From positions 1 through 35,205 of the forward strand of contig CALQZZ010000001.1 of NCBI GenBank assembly GCA_943350065.1: DNA of 35,205 nt, written 5' to 3'. Each line of letters opens with the position of its first letter. Position 1 is the first letter of the stretch. The DNA comes from Candidatus Nomurabacteria bacterium (GTDB lineage: Bacteria > Patescibacteriota > Minisyncoccia > Phycocordibacterales > UBA9973). Shown here piece after piece: positions 1,933 to 8,176 of this stretch. Below the pieces are notes generated by a model. It saw nothing but the letters and a program-made list of their open reading frames with translations, was not told the DNA's origin and made no database searches. The position numbers and the translations under genes are program-made.

Positions 1933-2682
1933 ATGATAGAAAAATTTCTCAAAGATATTGGTTTGTCAGAAAAAGAAGCTAGTGTGTATCTCGCATTACT
2001 CGCTGTAGAGTCGAGTAATGTTTCTGAACTCGCAACAAAGACTGGTATCAAACGCACGACAGTGTATCCAGTACTAGATGTGCTTATAAAAAAAGGACTC
2101 GTCAACGAAATGAAAAATGGTACGAAAGTAGAATATCAAGCAGAACAGCCAGAGCGACTTGAGACATACATCGAAGCTGAACGTATTAAATTAAATGAAC
2201 AACACAATTTATTAAAAGAAGTTATTCCTAGACTAAAAAGTATTTCTCGTGATACAGGTGAAAGACCAATTATCAAATACTACGAAGGAAGAGAAGGAAT
2301 TTTGGAATCTATAAAAGAATACTTGCACGACGCTAAGGAAAATGGAGAAATGTATTTAGTCTATCCAAAAGATTTACTTGATGAAACTTTTACAGAGACT
2401 GAAATGAAAACTGCAAAAAGCGATCGTTTGTCTAAAAAAATAACTACTCATTCTATTTACACATCTTCAAATGGAGAATTACTAAAAGATGAAAATTCAG
2501 ATCGTATACATTTAACTAATTCAAAAGACTATCCAATATTATGTGATTTAGCGGTAAAAGATGATCGTGTTCGAATACACACACTTGGTAAAAAGCTCTC
2601 TGCTATATACATAAAAAATAATGATTTAGCTGAAACATTACGCACCCTTATTAAACTGGCAATGAAAGGTTTACGTGAATAA
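1933..2682 (+). CDS. TrmB-family transcriptional regulator
   Basis: N-terminal winged-HTH typical of TrmB: LGLSEKEASVYLALLAVESSNVSELATKTGIKRTTVYPVLDVLIKKGLV. Length 249 aa, terminator follows. Confidence 0.85.
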   Translation: MIEKFLKDIGLSEKEASVYLALLAVESSNVSELATKTGIKRTTVYPVLDVLIKKGLVNEMKNGTKVEYQAEQPERLETYIEAERIKLNEQHNLLKEVIPRLKSISRDTGERPIIKYYEGREGILESIKEYLHDAKENGEMYLVYPKDLLDETFTETEMKTAKSDRLSKKITTHSIYTSSNGELLKDENSDRIHLTNSKDYPILCDLAVKDDRVRIHTLGKKLSAIYIKNNDLAETLRTLIKLAMKGLRE

Positions 2683-2698
2683 GATTTAAATAATAAAA

Positions 2699-2737
2699 GG
2701 CCTGAAACATTGCGTTCAGACCTTTTCTTTTTTTTGA
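2699..2737 (+). terminator. rho-independent terminator after TrmB-1
   Basis: GGCCTGAAAC-ATTGC-GTTCAGACC, then TTTTCTTTTTTTT. Confidence 0.8.
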
Positions 2738-2866
2738 GATTGCAACACGGCTTTGATTTCAATGTAATATACAAAGTAATCAATTTTTGTTGAGTTTGGA
2801 AAAAATTTCCATTTTTGCGTTTAAGTACTTAAACCAATAACTTTTATACGAAAGAGTCCTAAAAGG

Positions 2867-2901
2867 AGATAGGGGATGGAATCTGATTCCTGCCCCTATC
2901 T
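2867..2901. other. 35-nt near-perfect nested palindrome in an orphan intergenic region
   Basis: AGATAGGGG-AT-GGAAT-CTG-ATTCC-TG-CCCCTATCT: 9-bp outer stem plus 5-bp inner stem. Confidence 0.7.
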
Positions 2902-3070
2902 GTTTAGTTAGCGATCGCCCATAGTTACAAAGTTTTAAGGTTAGACACAAGAAACTAGATTTTGCTTTTGCTTGGTCTTACCCAAAGCATTTACAATCGA
3001 TAAGACATTTTTCTTTTTAAAAGCAACTTGTCTTCCTTTCTTAACTTACCGTTTTTCGCGGTTGCAACTT

Positions 3071-3110
3071 CGATGATTAACAGTCATTCATCGTTTTTAT
3101 TGTTTTTTTA
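3071..3110 (+). terminator. possible terminator inside the orphan intergenic region
   Basis: CGATGA-N11-TCATCG, then TTTTTATTGTTTTTTT. No annotated gene upstream, so it may end an sRNA. Confidence 0.4.
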
Positions 3111-3306
3111 ATTAACACTATACTGAACCCTAAGTATAGCAAATAGAAAAGATTTGTCAAGCGTCACTGACATGTATTAAATATTTAATATGAAATGACG
3201 TCAACTTTTTTGTTAAAATGTTAAGTGTAAAAAACAAATCTATATTTAAAATATGATTATTTTATAAGGTTATAATATAATTATAAAAAAGAAATGTTAA
3301 AAAGAC

Positions 3307-3335
3307 TTGACAAATAGATTCGAATCTGATAGACT
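3307..3335 (+). promoter_or_regulatory. sigma70-type promoter TTGACA-N17-TAGACT facing cassette unit A
   Basis: TTGACA at 3307-3312, 17-nt spacer, TAGACT at 3330-3335. Confidence 0.55.
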
Positions 3336-3459
3336 ATCCTCAGAGCCTTGATAAAGAAGTTTTACAAAGATATAGACGACATCGCGCACTCACTAATTTA
3401 AATACAGTGGAGCTAGCCCGAAAATGTTTATATTTTGCAAGTTTTCCTAAAAATTATGT

Positions 3460-3512
3460 TTTTAGGGGCTTGAAGAGTGGTTTCAAACAGACTATTCTTC
3501 TAACCTCTAAAA
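3460..3512 (+). promoter_or_regulatory. conserved 5' leader stem-loop, copy A (candidate cis-regulatory RNA)
   Basis: TTTTAGGGGCTTGAAGAGTGGTTTCAAACAGACTATTCTTCTAACCTCTAAAA. Outer stem UUUUAGGGG/CCUCUAAAA, inner hairpin TTGAA-N7-TTCAA. Lies 11 nt before ATG 3524. Confidence 0.55.
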
Positions 3513-3523
3513 CCACAAAGAAT

Positions 3524-3688
3524 ATGAAAGCTAAAAAAACGTTAACATTGGAAGAAATAGCTAATGCTTTACTCGCAAAGAGTGGCTTTGGCTCAGATGG
3601 AACTCCTAAAAAGAGAAAATCTAGAGCACAAAGCTTCTTCGAAAGAAGAACGATTATTAGTACACCGATGGGAAACGGTATAAGGTAG
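3524..3688 (+). CDS. small basic ORF (54 aa) inside cassette unit A; coding status uncertain
   Basis: In-frame ATG within track ORF 3407..3688 (MKAKKTLTLEEIANALL...), 11 nt downstream of the conserved leader stem-loop. Lys/Arg-rich, no homology recognised. Confidence 0.25.
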   Translation: MKAKKTLTLEEIANALLAKSGFGSDGTPKKRKSRAQSFFERRTIISTPMGNGIR

Positions 3689-3689
3689 T

Positions 3690-4095
3690 GTTCTTTATAA
3701 AATATTTACCGGTAAGGGATAACATGATTGGTCGACCAGCAAGGCATTGCTACCACTAATCTGTTAATCCTAAATGAGGTATGATCACCTCGTTCTATGT
3801 TGACGGCCGAGTGAGGCCATCCATATGAACAAAAAGATTCAAGTTTTTGTACTACTTAACCTTTATTGGCTAACCTTTTGTGACAACTTCAGAAGTTTGA
3901 TCAACTGTATGTTACCCGAGACCGGAGGATTAAGGAACTTGTATGAATGGGGAGAGCTCCTTCATTTGTAGAATTACTACGCAGGGGCGCTTGCCGTGTG
4001 AACAAGTACAGAGAGTGAATCCTTAGTGGTCATCAATGATGGCACACGAAGGATTCACTTCTTTATCAAAATCTTGAACATTGTTCGAGATTTTG
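3690..4095 (+). ncRNA. candidate structured non-coding RNA / 3' UTR element of unit A (family unknown)
   Basis: About 400 nt with no ORF of 60 aa or more on either strand despite being visibly GC-richer than the flanks. Many local helices: AGCAA-GGCA-TTGCT, GAGGT-ATGATC-ACCTC, GGCC-GAGTGA-GGCC, and the 10-bp GTGAATCCTT/AAGGATTCAC (4015-4058). Ends in a 12-bp hairpin at 4068-4094. Confidence 0.4.
4068..4094 (+). terminator. 12-bp hairpin closing cassette unit A
   Basis: AAAATCTTGAAC-ATT-GTTCGAGATTTT (one G-U pair). Confidence 0.5.
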
Positions 4096-4126
4096 TAGAG
4101 AATTGTTCTTTTTAAAACAAAATTAC

Positions 4127-4178
4127 ATTTAGGGGTTTGAAAAGTATTTCAAATGGAATATTTTTCTAACCCTTAAAT
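4127..4178 (+). promoter_or_regulatory. conserved 5' leader stem-loop, copy B
   Basis: ATTTAGGGGTTTGAAAAGTATTTCAAATGGAATATTTTTCTAACCCTTAAAT. Same architecture, with the outer-stem G-U wobble in a different position and inner hairpin TTTGAAA-N4-TTTCAAA. Lies 9 nt before ATG 4188. Confidence 0.55.
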
Positions 4179-4187
4179 TCTATAATT

Positions 4188-4460
4188 ATGAAAAAAATAA
4201 TGTGTATTGCGGTAATGGCTTTAGTATTTACTTCTTGTTCAAGAAATCAACATTTACGTTTTAAAAACGGAGTAGTTATTTCTGAAAATAGAGGGAGTGT
4301 CGATGTGTCGGTGTCAGTCGATACTAGTTTTGACGGTGTTGCTGATATAGAAGCTACAGTTATGGGTTTCAATAACACCAACAAAGACTACAAAAGGAAC
4401 GACACTGTATCAGTCGATGTGCGAACAAAGACTTCATACGCGGAGCCGGTGCTACATTGA
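4188..4460 (+). CDS. putative small lipoprotein (90 aa) inside cassette unit B
   Basis: Signal peptide with a lipobox-like end, MKKIMCIAVMALVFTSC. Lies 9 nt downstream of the second copy of the leader stem-loop. One of only two ORFs here ending in TGA. Confidence 0.4.
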   Translation: MKKIMCIAVMALVFTSCSRNQHLRFKNGVVISENRGSVDVSVSVDTSFDGVADIEATVMGFNNTNKDYKRNDTVSVDVRTKTSYAEPVLH

Positions 4461-4795
4461 GAAAGTGCACAAAGCAGACCATTGCTTAAGACTTATGATT
4501 AAGATCATAGGAATTTAAATGGCTTGGGAGACAGAAATGATAATCACTCTTCCAAAACGCCTAACAATCGTAGGTAAAAACGTCCTGAAAATGGGGACGT
4601 TAGTTAAAAATCCTGGGCGCACAGGTAAAGGAGTCAGGGGTGTACACTTTGGCGCGAGAGAAAACTCGTATAAAAATCATCGCAAGGGAAGTAATCCGCA
4701 GTGGTCTTCTCAAGAGGGAATCTAAGAATGCTGGTATCAGCAAACTGAAGATTTCCTTCTTTATTAAGATTTTAAGTAATACTTGAAATTTTATA
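4461..4795 (+). ncRNA. candidate structured non-coding RNA / 3' UTR element of unit B (3' end homologous to unit A)
   Basis: The only ORF here is an implausible 68-aa one (4519..4725). Helices AGCA-GACCAT-TGCT, TATGAT-TAAG-ATCATA, AACGTCC-N9-GGACGTT and GGAATCT/AGATTTCC (4717-4756) enclosing GCTG-GTAT-CAGC. Ends in a 12-bp hairpin at 4766-4792. Confidence 0.4.
4766..4792 (+). terminator. 12-bp hairpin closing cassette unit B
   Basis: AAGATTTTAAGT-AAT-ACTTGAAATTTT (two G-U pairs). Same geometry as 4068-4094 with different stem sequence. Confidence 0.5.
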
Positions 4796-4839
4796 GAGAT
4801 AATAAATTTGTTCCTTAACTTAAAAAAATAAATAGAGAA

Positions 4840-5199
4840 ATGAAAAAAGAAACTAAAGAAAATGAAATGGTATTTCCAAACAAAGAAGTTAAAAATCTTT
4901 GGACAAATATTTATAAAGAAATAAAAAAAGCAGTCGATGAATCTGCTGACGTACCTACTCCATTAGAAAAAAGAGTACGGGAAGTTTTAAAAAAACATTT
5001 AGGAACTGAATTAATACGAACTGATGCAGGATATCAAAAATTCTTTAAGGATGCCCTACGATTTGCAATTAATATGGACACCGACAAAATACTTTATCGT
5101 ATAGAAGTAGGTCGTAATCACTATGGATCAAACAATCACTCTAAAGGCAAAATCACTGGTGAATTTATGCCCGAAGACAAAAAAGAAGAAGAGTATTAA
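4840..5199 (+). CDS. hypothetical protein (119 aa)
   Basis: ORF track entry, charged soluble protein, followed by a hairpin terminator shared with convergent xth. Confidence 0.55.
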   Translation: MKKETKENEMVFPNKEVKNLWTNIYKEIKKAVDESADVPTPLEKRVREVLKKHLGTELIRTDAGYQKFFKDALRFAINMDTDKILYRIEVGRNHYGSNNHSKGKITGEFMPEDKKEEEY

Positions 5200-5204
5200 C
5201 CACT

Positions 5205-5241
5205 AAACCCGAGCACTATGTGACTCGGGATTTTAATTTTT
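5205..5241. terminator. bidirectional terminator between 4840..5199 and xth
   Basis: CCCGAG-N10-CTCGGG, then ATTTTAATTTTT. Confidence 0.65.
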
Positions 5242-6115: not shown

Positions 6116-7063
6116 TTATTTTTTACTATGAAATTTCTTATGCACTTCGAGAAGTTGCTTGTCTGTCACGTGAGTATAGATTTGTGTCGTGGCGATATTG
6201 GAATGTCCTAGCATCATTTGTACAGAGCGGATGTCTGCACCATTTGAAAGTAAATCAGTCGCGAAACAGTGCCTCACTACGTGCGGAGTCACTTTTTTAG
6301 AAATCCCAGCCATCGTCGCATATTGTTTTACAATTCTTTCTATTGACCTTCTTGTTAATGCTTTTGTGTCGAACACATCATCACCATTTTTATTTTTCGT
6401 TTTTTGATTCACTTCTTTACCGACTTGGATAAAAAGAGCTTCACTCATATCTTTTCTTTTTGCTAAATACGCTTTCACTGCATTTCGTGCATCTTCGGAA
6501 ATAAATACGACGCGAACCTTACCACCTTTTCCACGAATAGAATATTCATCGAGACTCAAATCTAAATCACTAGTTAGGGAACAAAGTTCTGACACACGAA
6601 GACCTGTAGAAAAAAGTAATTCGAGAATTGCTTTATCGCGAAGAGATTTCAAATCATTATCTTTCGGTGCATTTAAAAGTCTAGAAAGTTCAGCAGGAGA
6701 AATGAGGTCGAGGGATCGCTCTTGGACTTTGGCGAGTTCTATCTTATCAGCATGTAGTGATGTAATGTCTCTCTTTGCTAAAAATTTTAAAAACACGCGA
6801 AGTGCTATCAAATAATAATTCTGAGTTTTTTTAGACAAAGTTTTTCCTGTGGCTCTGTTGTTACCTGTAGATTGTCTGTTCAACCAGAGACGAAATTCAC
6901 GAACAACTTGGTCAGTAATTTCTTTCGCATTTTGTATCTTTGTATATTCAAAAAAACGAGTGAGGTAGTGCCCATAATTTTCGACAGTTTTAATACTGGA
7001 ACCTTTTTCAATTTCCAAATATTCCAAAAACTGCCTTTTTAAATTTTCTATCTCGGATGCCAT
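6116..7063 (-). CDS. xerC: tyrosine site-specific recombinase, XerC/XerD family
   Basis: N-terminal SAM-like domain. Catalytic residues in STGLRVSEL (Arg), HVVRHCFATDLL (His-x-x-Arg) and LGHSNIATTQIYTHV (His, Tyr). Confidence 0.88.
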   Translation of the reverse strand: MASEIENLKRQFLEYLEIEKGSSIKTVENYGHYLTRFFEYTKIQNAKEITDQVVREFRLWLNRQSTGNNRATGKTLSKKTQNYYLIALRVFLKFLAKRDITSLHADKIELAKVQERSLDLISPAELSRLLNAPKDNDLKSLRDKAILELLFSTGLRVSELCSLTSDLDLSLDEYSIRGKGGKVRVVFISEDARNAVKAYLAKRKDMSEALFIQVGKEVNQKTKNKNGDDVFDTKALTRRSIERIVKQYATMAGISKKVTPHVVRHCFATDLLSNGADIRSVQMMLGHSNIATTQIYTHVTDKQLLEVHKKFHSKK

Positions 7064-7660: not shown

Positions 7661-8176
7661 ATGAGTATAATAAAACATAAAGAACAACGCGTCGCAGTTT
7701 TCATAGATACACAAAATGTCTATCATAGTGCACGCAACCTATATCACGCTCGCGTGAACTTCGGAAATATTTTGAAGGACGTAGTCGCAGGACGCAAACT
7801 CGTGCGTGCTGTAGCATACGTCATCACGACTGAAGCAGGGGACGAAAATAAATTTTTCGAAGCATTAAATAAAATCGGAATCGAAACTAAAACAAAAGAT
7901 TTACAAATCTTTGCTGGAGGTGCGAAGAAAGCTGACTGGGATGTCGGCCTTGCTATGGATGTGATCAAAATGGCACCAAAACTCGATGCTGTCGTCATCG
8001 TCTCTGGTGATGGAGATTTTATTCCACTCGTAGAATATTTACAAACTATCGGTGTGCAAGTCGAAGTCGCTTCATTCGGCAAATCAACTTCTGGAAAACT
8101 CCGCGAAGCTGTCGACGAATTTTTCGACCTATCCGAAAATCCTAGAAAGTATTTGATTGGAGGAAATAATAAATAA
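7661..8176 (+). CDS. NYN domain / LabA-like (DUF88) protein, putative RNase
   Basis: RVAVFIDTQNVYHSARN and VVIVSGDGDFIPLVEYLQ..GVQVEV are NYN/LabA hallmarks. 171 aa. Confidence 0.8.
   Translation: MSIIKHKEQRVAVFIDTQNVYHSARNLYHARVNFGNILKDVVAGRKLVRAVAYVITTEAGDENKFFEALNKIGIETKTKDLQIFAGGAKKADWDVGLAMDVIKMAPKLDAVVIVSGDGDFIPLVEYLQTIGVQVEVASFGKSTSGKLREAVDEFFDLSENPRKYLIGGNNK

Follow-up and report, generated by a model that had tools for sequence, protein, structure and literature searches.

A covarying two-hairpin RNA in a CPR small-protein operon, at junctions where related genomes carry hammerheads

The purpose of bacterial hammerheads is debated, the leading idea being that they cut long transcripts into single-gene mRNAs. 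RNase III processing hairpins, known from rRNA operons and from the intercistronic regions of phage T7 early mRNA, offer a near-continuous RNA duplex of about 20 bp or more. Clustered bacterial hammerheads, mostly in prophage operons, flank single genes and cut polycistronic RNAs of ~2 kb in vitro (Perreault et al. 2011, PMC3088659). Different cleaving motifs have been noted at sites of the same kinds (Weinberg et al. 2019, PMC6765202), and one such motif, hatchet, is built of P1–P4 with conserved internal loops (PMC6561176).

Here we describe a locus that resembles these clusters, in a window of 35,205 nucleotides (the whole stretch of DNA analysed) from a Paceibacteria-type CPR genome. Like clustered hammerheads, it appears to yield a long transcript in which small genes, most of them unannotated, run on one strand with a compact structured RNA at each junction. 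Unlike them, its junctions in the window hold a two-hairpin module that is unknown to Rfam and no hammerhead; it is a chromosomal operon beside TrmB, among housekeeping genes; and its proteins and modules were not found in IMG/VR viral contigs. The initial annotation had seen a GC-rich, ORF-poor gap of about 2 kb in a tightly packed genome, and rightly so, the rest of the window being densely coding under table 11 and the spacers in the gap having a GC content of 0.38–0.42 against 0.24–0.30 in the flanks. We read this gap as part of a strongly transcribed three-gene operon for small, lineage-specific proteins (3307–5241), in which a consensus promoter is followed by genes of 54, 90 and 119 amino acids (aa), all on the + strand and probably co-transcribed. 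About 60% of the operon transcript would be non-coding, GC-richer and strongly folded on the + strand, an amount of structured RNA in a highly promoted operon that stands out in so compact a genome. The features are listed here in order, related loci being designated by L and a number.

3307–3335, + strand: operon promoter, TTGACA-17-TAGACT with TG before the second hexamer (promoter scan, 10/12)
3336–3459, + strand: primary 5′ leader of presumed function, compared with the leaders of L007 and L010
3460–3512, + strand: 5′ stem-loop (SL5) copy 1, ~20 bp, ending 12 nt 5′ of the ORF1 start (repeat, fold, covariation)
3524–3688, + strand: ORF1, basic protein of 54 aa, a conserved family (homologues in relatives)
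3689–4013, + strand: spacer 1, structured and non-coding (z = −3.0 alone, −6.6 with the module)
4014–4100, + strand: A-type module copy 1, made of P1 (4014–4059), a joining nucleotide (4060) and P2 (4061–4100) (descriptor search, anatomy, covariation; covariance-model match at 4050–4100, 24.3 bits)
4101–4126, + strand: leader motif AAUUGUUCUUUUUAAAAC, family consensus GUUCWUUUAAAA (same motif behind modules and hammerheads)
4127–4178, + strand: SL5 copy 2, ending 10 nt 5′ of the ORF2 start (repeat, fold, covariation)
4188–4460, + strand: ORF2, lipoprotein-like, 90 aa, a conserved family (homologues in L010 and L014 and seven more proteins)
4461–4714, + strand: spacer 2, structured and non-coding (z = −4.6 alone, −6.6 with the module)
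4715–4798, + strand: A-type module copy 2, made of P1 (4715–4757), a joining nucleotide (4758) and P2 (4759–4798) (descriptor search, anatomy, covariation; covariance-model match at 4749–4798, 24.6 bits)
4799–4839, + strand: third-gene leader containing UUUGUUCCUUAAC (comparison with orthologous junctions)
4840–5199, + strand: third cistron, helical protein of 119 aa, a lineage-specific family (12 homologues, 52–67% identity)
5208–5241, + strand: intrinsic terminator that closes the operon, CCCGAG, loop, CUCGGG and U run (read from the sequence)

The order TrmB, promoter, small ORFs and 119-aa gene recurs in L007, L010, L014, L018, L019, L020 and further lipoprotein loci. A consensus promoter heads each related locus: TTGACA-17-TAKACT lies at the equivalent place in L007, L010, L018, L019 and L106/L107, and positions 3264–3356 of the window align with L007 7257–7350 at 74%. 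Within the operon a canonical terminator follows only the last gene; a further clear terminator lies at 2695–2735. An ARAGORN scan of the window was negative for tRNA and tmRNA. An alternative genetic code was considered and rejected, because read-through of the ORF2 TGA adds only 14 codons and the long genes are intact under table 11. The comparative sample comprises about a dozen genomes. Copies in public assemblies (L001–L006) are identical to the locus, with zero variation, and are therefore of no help for covariation; a metagenome scan yielded one locus only. Minus-strand stretches 5′ of the promoter do not align between relatives.

The two small ORFs are unrelated to each other, as first described, and each belongs to a family conserved among relatives, which argues that the peptides are selected too. 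ORF1 is strongly basic, and its homologues of 55–57 aa (L010 7875–8042, L019 2714–2881 and L020 1760–1933; 62–64% identity) share the C-terminus KFFERKTVIxTPMGNGSR; a search with ORF1 retrieved ORF1 alone. ORF2 has a lipoprotein-like N terminus and is 34–47% identical to lipoproteins in more than eight loci, and all loci with ORF2 homologues adjoin a TrmB gene. AlphaFold2 models the 119-aa protein as a bundle of four helices (pLDDT 76), for which the PDB gave no fold match. A Pfam search with the proteins, ORF1 included, returned no match, and no viral relative emerged when IMG/VR was scanned at the protein level with the lipoprotein and 119-aa families. The sets and order of small ORFs differ between relatives, between the same kinds of modules, in keeping with the 'cassette-like' organization originally described. 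The proposed boundaries of two 700-nt units are better redrawn after the comparison, which places the module with the junction and the 5′ untranslated region (UTR) of the downstream gene.

Both junctions in the window carry the same module, the two copies sharing a 60-nt direct repeat. The plan is a hairpin P1, one nucleotide and a long hairpin P2 whose base reads CWUUA/UAGWG and includes an invariant U.G pair and a bulged U; in copy 1, P2 runs CUUUA, bulged U, CAAAAUCU ... AGAUUUUG, UAGAG. This anatomy keeps the shared 3′ module of the initial annotation in place and corrects its interior. What had been taken for a linker, CTTCTTTATYAARAT, pairs with the trailing RTAGAGA, extending the 12-bp hairpin into a single hairpin of ~18 bp with one bulged U in both window copies. 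Across the family P2 has 13–19 bp, with short versions of 13–15 bp in some copies (L007). P1 is G+C-rich and directly followed on its 3′ side by UCUUUAU in A-type copies or by UCCCUUUUU in D-type copies. A-type P1 loops are 10–32 nt long (29–32 nt in the window) and have no conserved sequence; that of the B-type is conserved as GCCUAnUAGUAAAA.

A descriptor search gave 15 module matches, all on the + strand, against 0.47 expected. Among 23 curated copies, 96% of cells are paired, 15 of 20 pairs have changed on both sides, and the covariation score is 0.62, compared with 0.25 for shuffles and about 0.1 when the partners are slid. A covariance model then recovered 33 copies, spread over 12 related loci and always on the gene strand, ~10 of them outside the training set. 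Over the 33 copies 94% of cells pair, compensatory changes are seen at 16 of 20 pairs and no copy lacks the U.G pair. As controls for the model, 48 viral loci that match the B-type sequence pattern all scored 19.4 bits or less. In the module pairs G.U outnumbers A.C by 59 to 1, which identifies the folded molecule as + strand RNA. In the 35-kb window, and in related loci totalling about 120 kb, the covariance model found copies nowhere but in this operon. REP- or MITE-like dispersed palindromes were accordingly rejected, all copies in this sequence lying in the operon and on the gene strand. A phage origin was likewise set aside, IMG/VR pattern scans for A- and B-type modules having returned chance matches without hairpins.

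The two-hairpin module is thus a real RNA family that is absent from Rfam 15. Searches of the whole region, whether cut off at the gathering score or run at E up to 10, gave no family match, as the annotation by eye had anticipated, and none to known riboswitch, leader or large non-coding RNA families (T-box, RNase P, tmRNA, SRP, 6S, ROOL, GOLLD, OLE and others). With isolated A-type (3995–4130) and B-type (L022 1385–1520) modules, Rfam at E up to 10 returned only generic noise from miRNA and sRNA hairpins, and the models for twister, twister-sister, pistol, hatchet, HDV-like and hairpin ribozymes gave no match.

The second shared structure, SL5, lies before the start codons as originally noted, with refined limits of 3461–3511 and 4128–4177 upstream of ATGs at 3524 and 4188. 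Both copies contain the 18-mer TTTAGGGGYTTGAARAGT, which has two exact + strand matches in the window; its other matches are its own imperfect complements, and the chance expectation is 0.28 at up to three mismatches. The same kind of hairpin stands immediately upstream of the lipoprotein homologues in L010 and L109. In these and both window copies, 91% of cells are paired and 7 of 14 pairs have changed on both sides, and further copies occur in L016, L019, L020 and L022. This covariation, which includes G.U pairs, argues for an RNA hairpin. The 5′ and 3′ structures shared in the window both recur in relatives, then, with substitutions that preserve pairing, so that the earlier proposal that structure is selected holds for RNA (covariation, 33 modules, SL5). 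Its corollary, that the peptides are not selected, fails, as both ORFs belong to conserved families.

Across relatives the junctions follow a common grammar: a type III hammerhead or a two-hairpin module (A, B or D), then GUUCWUUUAAAA, then an optional 5′ stem-loop and the AUG. The Hammerhead_3 model (RF00008) has 13 matches in seven relatives (L010, L014, L018, L019, L020, L022 and L109), with E values of 1e-8 to 1e-5 and scores of 41–51 bits, except for a weak match of 26.4 bits at L020 2386–2432; one match exceeds the gathering score of 48.5. Relatives of the locus carry one to three type III hammerheads each. The window has none at the gathering score and none at E up to 10 in 2650–4900, so the statement that these structures are not hammerheads stands for the window, but equivalent junctions in relatives carry them. 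The junction 5′ of the 119-aa orthologues makes the point: it holds an A-type module in the window and in L010, a B-type in L021, a D-type in L014 and a type III hammerhead in four relatives (L018, L019, L020 and L022), with the same leader after every module or hammerhead. In relatives, GUUCWUUUAAAA follows A, B and D modules and hammerheads. Comparison of orthologous junctions shows module and hammerhead to be positionally equivalent, and these hammerheads are the best clue to function. The two are not simply redundant, since L010 and L014 each have an intergenic region in which an A-type module lies 95–135 nt from a hammerhead.

One orthologous junction is occupied by a hammerhead in some of these genome-reduced CPR bacteria and by an unrelated, covarying RNA of two hairpins in others. 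This amounts to a natural swap experiment, and suggests a requirement at this position that any of several RNA motifs can satisfy. We consider it most likely, from the comparison of loci, that the modules mark sites of processing or insulation in a polycistronic RNA. The modules, probably joined in this by the long 5′ stem-loops, would be cut or insulation points of the long transcript, where a double-strand-specific host RNase such as RNase III may cut the ~18–20-bp hairpins and where hairpins may also serve as exonuclease barriers. Each small cistron would thereby obtain its own mRNA with structured ends, its own stability and its own translation rate, and the hammerheads of sister genomes would do the same job autonomously. 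Cleavage and the enzyme responsible are both inferred. The modules resemble the T7 and rRNA hairpins in having about two helical turns, a small bulge or internal loop, partly conserved sequence and an intercistronic position. Unlike those hairpins, they comprise P1 as an additional hairpin and, downstream, a leader motif that is fixed, and some copies have fewer than 20 bp; a P2 of 13–15 bp, as in L007, is short for a classical RNase III substrate and counts against processing. As invariant nucleotides within a helix, the U.G pair and the bulged U would fit a site for protein binding, or a catalytic core, just as well. For the reading as a whole, that of a polycistronic three-protein operon with modular + strand RNA elements whose modules mark processing or insulation of the transcript, we see an even chance; counting against it are the spacers, the greater part of the finding, for which no homologues could be detected.

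The modules might instead stay uncut and be regulatory or insulating, with P1 and its U-rich tract acting as a leaky terminator or exonuclease barrier and P2 and SL5 as operators for RNA-binding proteins or translation-control hairpins. The binder would possibly be one of the operon's own basic small proteins, ORF1 being very basic, and the hairpins would set the ratio of the cistrons. Protein operators typically have their conserved sequence within a helix that carries a bulged base, as here; SL5 stops 10–12 nt short of the AUG, a position from which it could influence ribosome access; and the G+C-rich P1 is followed by a U-containing tract that is better in D-type than in A-type copies. Yet the terminator scan flagged neither window module, the module U tract is weak beside the clear terminators at 2695–2735 and 5208–5241, and the substitution by hammerheads at orthologous junctions is left unexplained; we regard this possibility as doubtful. 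That substitution speaks for a self-cleaving role, in which the A, B and D modules would be a new class of natural ribozyme replacing hammerheads. Twister-sister, pistol and hatchet were themselves discovered beside known ribozymes, although structures neighbouring ribozymes are often non-cleaving (PMC6765202). Like those motifs and the ribozyme-associated RNAs, the modules are small conserved, covarying structures in hammerhead intergenic slots, with invariant non-Watson–Crick features (the U.G pair and neighbouring bulged U) and a conserved B-type P1 loop that hints at a tertiary contact. They have no covariance-model similarity to any of the three or, as isolated modules at E up to 10, to Rfam ribozyme families, and their two-hairpin layout differs from that of hatchet. 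Moreover, their conserved positions lie almost all in regular helices, in contrast to the junctions and loops of known small ribozymes, A-type P1 loops vary in length and sequence, and modules share intergenic regions with hammerheads. A ribozyme is therefore unlikely in our estimation.

The spacers raise a different question. The structured, ORF-free segments described at the outset are confirmed by folding against shuffles (z values in the list), and the minus strand of spacer 2 with its module (4461–4839) shows a much weaker fold (z = −2.3). There is no credible ORF in 3689–4013 or 4461–4714, nor any similarity to relatives at the nucleotide or protein level; decayed genes were excluded, tblastn with all small ORFs of the relatives and tblastx having returned nothing. 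In L010 and L014 the position of spacer 2 is taken by a C-module, a hammerhead and a spacer, and alignment of spacer 2 to these hammerhead-bearing counterparts found homology in the module only and no core, which rejects a degenerate hammerhead. The spacers are most likely structured 3′-UTR or inter-module RNA. One could take them, with their shared ends, for two tandem large non-coding RNAs beside which the small ORFs are incidental: they are GC-richer than the flanks and fold better than shuffles, relatives have ORF-free structured stretches of 300–480 nt after the promoter, and cutting at both flanking modules would release RNAs of 250–330 nt. Both ORFs are conserved protein families, however, modules and ORFs have the nucleotide similarity to relatives that the spacers lack, Rfam gave no match, and in L010 the large RNA precedes the ORF1 homologue rather than following it, so that the 'unit' is not conserved. 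Large RNAs of this kind strike us as quite improbable. A DNA-level role is more improbable still, and very much so. As in integron attC arrays, short same-strand ORFs of variable set and order stand behind one strong promoter with imperfect, bulged palindromes between them, and a tyrosine recombinase gene lies at 6116–7063, so that the palindromes could be cassette recombination sites or mobile palindromic repeats, which would account for the differences in gene content and order between genomes. Against this, the excess of G.U over A.C in the stems makes the pairing strand-specific, as for RNA and not for a DNA palindrome; by eye, the modules lack RYYYAAC/GTTRRRY core sites; and they occur only in this operon in the sequence surveyed. 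An exonuclease gene stands between the array and the recombinase, whose Pfam domains are of XerC/D type; in relatives, too, the recombinase is not a neighbour of the array. The array has no adjacent integron integrase.

The locus supplies a small set of candidates, each about 85 nt long, for self-cleavage or RNase dependence. At least two RNA motif families, SL5 and the two-hairpin module, are new to Rfam, and the locus also defines several families of small proteins that Pfam lacks.

Two minor observations concern the transcription signals. A promoter within the modules or leader was rejected on inspection, there being no −35/−10 pair at consistent spacing across copies; the only site that the scan flagged there, a 9/12 promoter-like match within SL5 copy 2, may have a promoter role. 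The primary 5′ leader contains CTTGATAAAGAAG at 3347–3359, which is the reverse complement of the P2 5′ strand (minus-strand match at 3345–3359), together with the leader-like AAGTTTTCCTAAAAA.

The ORF-poor gap between a TrmB-family gene and the gene for a 119-aa protein is the only long one in the window, the rest of which is densely coding, and its GC content of 0.38–0.42, against 0.24–0.30 in the flanks, bears out the GC-richer gap that the initial annotation had noticed in a tightly packed genome. The shared 5′ stem-loops and the two small ORFs described there are likewise found, as follows.

Features of the locus
1933–2682: TrmB-family gene
3461–3511, plus strand: 5′ stem-loop (SL5), copy 1
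3524–3688, plus strand: ORF1, 54-aa basic protein
4014–4100, plus strand: A-type two-hairpin module, copy 1
4128–4177, plus strand: SL5, copy 2
4188–4460, plus strand: ORF2, 90-aa lipoprotein-like protein
4715–4798, plus strand: A-type module, copy 2
4840–5199: 119-aa gene

Several public assemblies carry identical copies of the locus, with no variation among them. The 119-aa protein has 11 homologues (52–67% identity), on contigs of MAGs labelled Paceibacterota, Nomurabacteria and Saccharibacteria, which are bacteria of the candidate phyla radiation (CPR). Six loci of relatives (L007, L010, L014, L018, L019 and L020) keep the order TrmB gene, promoter, small-ORF region, 119-aa gene; the consensus promoter (TTGACA-17-TAKACT) comes next after the TrmB gene, and small ORFs and GC-rich RNA without ORFs fill the 2–3.5 kb between it and the 119-aa gene. 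The TrmB gene adjoins again in L106–L114, loci of lipoprotein homologues retrieved later. In the window the locus sits among housekeeping genes (exonuclease III, XerC/D-type recombinase, S15 and PNPase), and IMG/VR viral contigs scanned with the 119-aa and lipoprotein families and with the RNA patterns yielded no relatives; the locus is therefore chromosomal, and a prophage, which we also considered, is not evident.

The two shared 3′ modules described initially form a 60-nt direct repeat at a spacing of 698 nt. The supposedly separate linker CUUCUUUAUCAAAAU base-pairs with the trailing GUAGAGA, as comparison with the L010, L014 and L018 copies reveals. The module runs from P1 (a hairpin of at least 7 bp with a loop of 4–32 nt) through one joining nucleotide to P2a (five pairs, CWUUA with UAGWG), a bulged U, P2b (eight pairs) and a variable top. 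Relatives also hold a second sequence type of the same architecture, B (CAUUAUUCAGCUCA ... UGAGUUGAUAGUG), a third, looser type, D, and in L020 a hybrid with an A-type P1 and a B-type P2. A strict descriptor found 15 instances, every one on the gene strand, where shuffles give 0.47. With GAAA substituted for loops and only genuine paired bases counted, 96% of cells are paired among 23 curated copies, a figure inflated because P1 arms and P2 register were picked for maximal pairing; compensatory changes are not so inflated, and both partners vary in 15 of 20 pairs. The covariation score is 0.62 (shuffles, 0.25; slid partners, about 0.1). Trained on these copies, a covariance model finds 33 in 12 loci, all on the plus strand within these operons and about 10 of them unseen in training, whereas 48 control viral loci preselected for the B-type sequence pattern score at most 19.4 bits. 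In the model-made alignment 94% of cells are paired, the P2a U·G pair is present in 33/33 copies and both sides change in 16 of 20 pairs; homologues of the kind sought in the initial proposal thus preserve the helices. No Rfam family resembles the isolated module at E up to 10, in line with the earlier failure to recognize a known family. By comparative sequence evidence, the 3′ module is a real, covarying two-hairpin RNA family.

The primary 5′ leader (window 3345–3359) holds CTTGATAAAGAAG, whose reverse complement is the conserved P2 5′ strand of the two A-type modules (4058–4070 and 4756–4768), with which it could pair over long range. The primary transcript may instead start with a 'half module' resembling the P2 3′ arm plus leader, a start also suggested by post-promoter sequences of L007, L018 and L020.

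The 18-mer core of SL5 occurs exactly twice on the plus strand (0.28 expected by chance at up to three mismatches), each time within a roughly 20-bp hairpin whose end lies 10–12 nt upstream of a start codon. SL5-like hairpins stand 5′ of lipoprotein genes in L010 and L109 and of 119-aa orthologues in L016, L019, L020 and L022. Four divergent copies have 91% of cells paired and both-side changes in 7 of 14 pairs, and further copies show, by inspection, additional compensatory changes in upper stems. A weak sigma-70-like match inside copy 2 would suit a promoter, a reading that we do not favour, as the covariation, G·U included, points to an RNA hairpin. SL5 is an optional, portable element placed between leader and AUG.

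Hammerhead cores (CUGAUGAG ... CGAAAC), noticed by eye in L018 and L010, were confirmed by Rfam as Hammerhead_3, with E-values of 1e-8 to 1e-5 except for one weak match; one match exceeds the gathering score.

Hammerhead_3 matches (Rfam)
L010: 9748–9803
L014: 1638–1690
L018: 5874–5928
L019: 2979–3033, 4552–4607
L020: 2386–2432 (weak; 26.4 bits, E 0.07), 2947–3001, 4226–4280
L022: 58–112, 950–1004, 2550–2604
L109: 3056–3111

Neither the window nor L007 has a Hammerhead_3 match, so the original exclusion of a hammerhead holds for the window but not for the equivalent junctions of L018, L019, L020 and L022. In the feature map each ORF is preceded, in order, by a hammerhead or A/B/D module, a conserved leader, (A)AGUUCUUUNAAAA or UUGUUCAUUUAAAA, and sometimes SL5.

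Element in the slot 5′ of the 119-aa orthologue
Window, L010: A-type module
L021: B-type module
L014: D-type module
L007: variant hairpin pair
L018, L019, L020, L022: type III hammerhead
L016: primary promoter

This variation shows the slot taken interchangeably by an RNA class of proven self-cleavage and by the window's module. Hammerheads cleave after GUC, at the motif's 5′ end, and the downstream mRNA would then begin with the ribozyme fold, immediately before the leader.

A further element of about 85 nt, the 'C-module' (AAGUCCAAACAAG ... CUGGCUAAG ... GAGUAAACAUCUUGAAACUGAA), is 77–95% identical among genomes whose proteins share only about 60% identity. It often starts within an ORF 3′ end, there encoding EKSKQ, usually with a hammerhead just downstream. 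It is absent from the window, apart at most from a degenerate trace at 4461–4480.

C-module copies
L007: 9120–9173, 9762–9811
L010: 8816–8902
L014: 1537–1621, 2235–2321
L018: 5768–5855
L020: 4122–4209

ORF1 and ORF2 are unrelated to one another. All-against-all comparison of plus-strand ORFs over the loci defined several families: ORF1 clusters with 55–57-aa ORFs of L010, L019 and L020 (62–64% identity, tblastn), and ORF2 with L010 and L014 lipoproteins, to which a profile search added seven more. Families absent from the window include a 92–97-aa CxxC protein and a 74-aa protein; none of the small-ORF families matches Pfam. Judged by this conservation, ORF1 and ORF2 are real genes. The initial view that RNA structures rather than peptides are selected thus stands for the covarying modules and SL5 but not in its dismissal of the peptides. 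The alignment of the L010 lipoprotein (tblastn) continues past the ORF2 TGA (within 4455–4484), and homologues extend about 10 residues further (... TEKSKQ ...), so the window lipoprotein is C-terminally shortened relative to its family. Public annotation of identical contigs places a 39-aa gene at 3564–3683 and a 68-aa gene at 4519–4725, the latter overlapping P1 of an A-type module; these look like over-calls. No homologues of either, or of an ORF at 3825–3971, were found in relatives, and we regard the two ORFs inside spacers (3825–3971 and 4519–4725), both overlapped by RNA structure, as spurious.

The spacers (3689–4013 and 4461–4714) were correctly described as ORF-free and structured: with the module, each folds at z = −6.6 on the plus strand against dinucleotide shuffles, and without it at −3.0 and −4.6; on the minus strand unit 2 with its module loses strong folding (z = −2.3). 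Comparison at the nucleotide and protein levels and by positional alignment shows no similarity between them and relatives. Because a conserved C-module, a hammerhead and a spacer occupy the position of spacer 2 in L010 and L014, and the large post-promoter RNA of L010 precedes the ORF1 homologue rather than following it, the 700-nt unit first proposed is not conserved as such. Each unit has, soon after its stop codon, a short sequence complementary to one at or just before P1.

Complementary pairs
Unit 1: 3752–3759 with 4023–4030, ACCACUAA with UUAGUGGU
Unit 2: 4477–4485 with 4698–4706, GACCAUUGC with GCAGUGGUC

The minimum-free-energy fold of unit 2 includes its pair. Such pairing could close each spacer as one domain, although two examples may reflect chance.

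Clustered bacterial hammerheads flank single genes and cleave polycistronic RNAs of about 2 kb in vitro, and were proposed to process the transcript into single-gene mRNAs (Perreault et al., PMC3088659); the same kinds of sites hold different cleaving motifs, and other structures discovered near known ribozymes proved non-cleaving (review, PMC6765202). Following this logic, the most economical general model is one polycistronic RNA on which the window modules would mark processing or insulation points, a reading to which we give about even chances. We favour cuts by a host RNase at P2/SL5 and/or hairpins that would block exonucleases, since P2, with about 18 bp and one bulge, and SL5 are near the length recognised by double-strand-specific RNases. 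Some P2 helices have only 13–15 bp, and in L010 and L014 a single intergenic region contains an A-type module as well as a hammerhead; both observations argue against simple redundancy.

Non-cleaving modules, serving as an attenuator or protein operator, are the likeliest of the alternatives but still improbable; self-cleavage by a new ribozyme class, in a slot that hammerheads fill elsewhere, is somewhat less probable. That the spacers are functional products, given strong folding on one side and no similarity to relatives on the other, is doubtful. DNA-level cassette recombination is very improbable: G·U outnumber A·C in module pairs by 59 to 1, so the folded molecule is plus-strand RNA, not a DNA palindrome.

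The feature is real and has more to it than the initial annotation described: an operon of cistrons separated by putative RNA processing modules. By analogy it would belong to a known kind, from which it differs in RNA motif families absent from Rfam and in its CPR lineage, and these are what is new here. We found no paper joining hammerheads with CPR or Parcubacteria, nor one treating them in Patescibacteria beyond the passing co-mention in two papers.

The TrmB-family regulator may control the operon. Its gene adjoins in every locus long enough to include that side, lying in L106–L108 (5037–5807) on the opposite strand, immediately upstream of the promoter. Both the window (7661–8176) and L010 (1680–2189) encode an NYN-domain protein (predicted ribonuclease) a few kb away from the operon. 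A second strong promoter, on the minus strand (3160→3133, TTGACA-16-TATACT with TG), is directed away from the operon into about 430 ORF-poor nt (within 2690–3160; fold z = −4.0, perfect-looking hairpin at 2867–2901) that close at a bidirectional terminator (2695–2726) common to the TrmB gene. By eye, a consensus promoter of divergent orientation stands at the equivalent position in L007 and L010. A short AUGGGNGA(U/C) motif recurs; the divergent stretches compared between relatives show no overall alignment.
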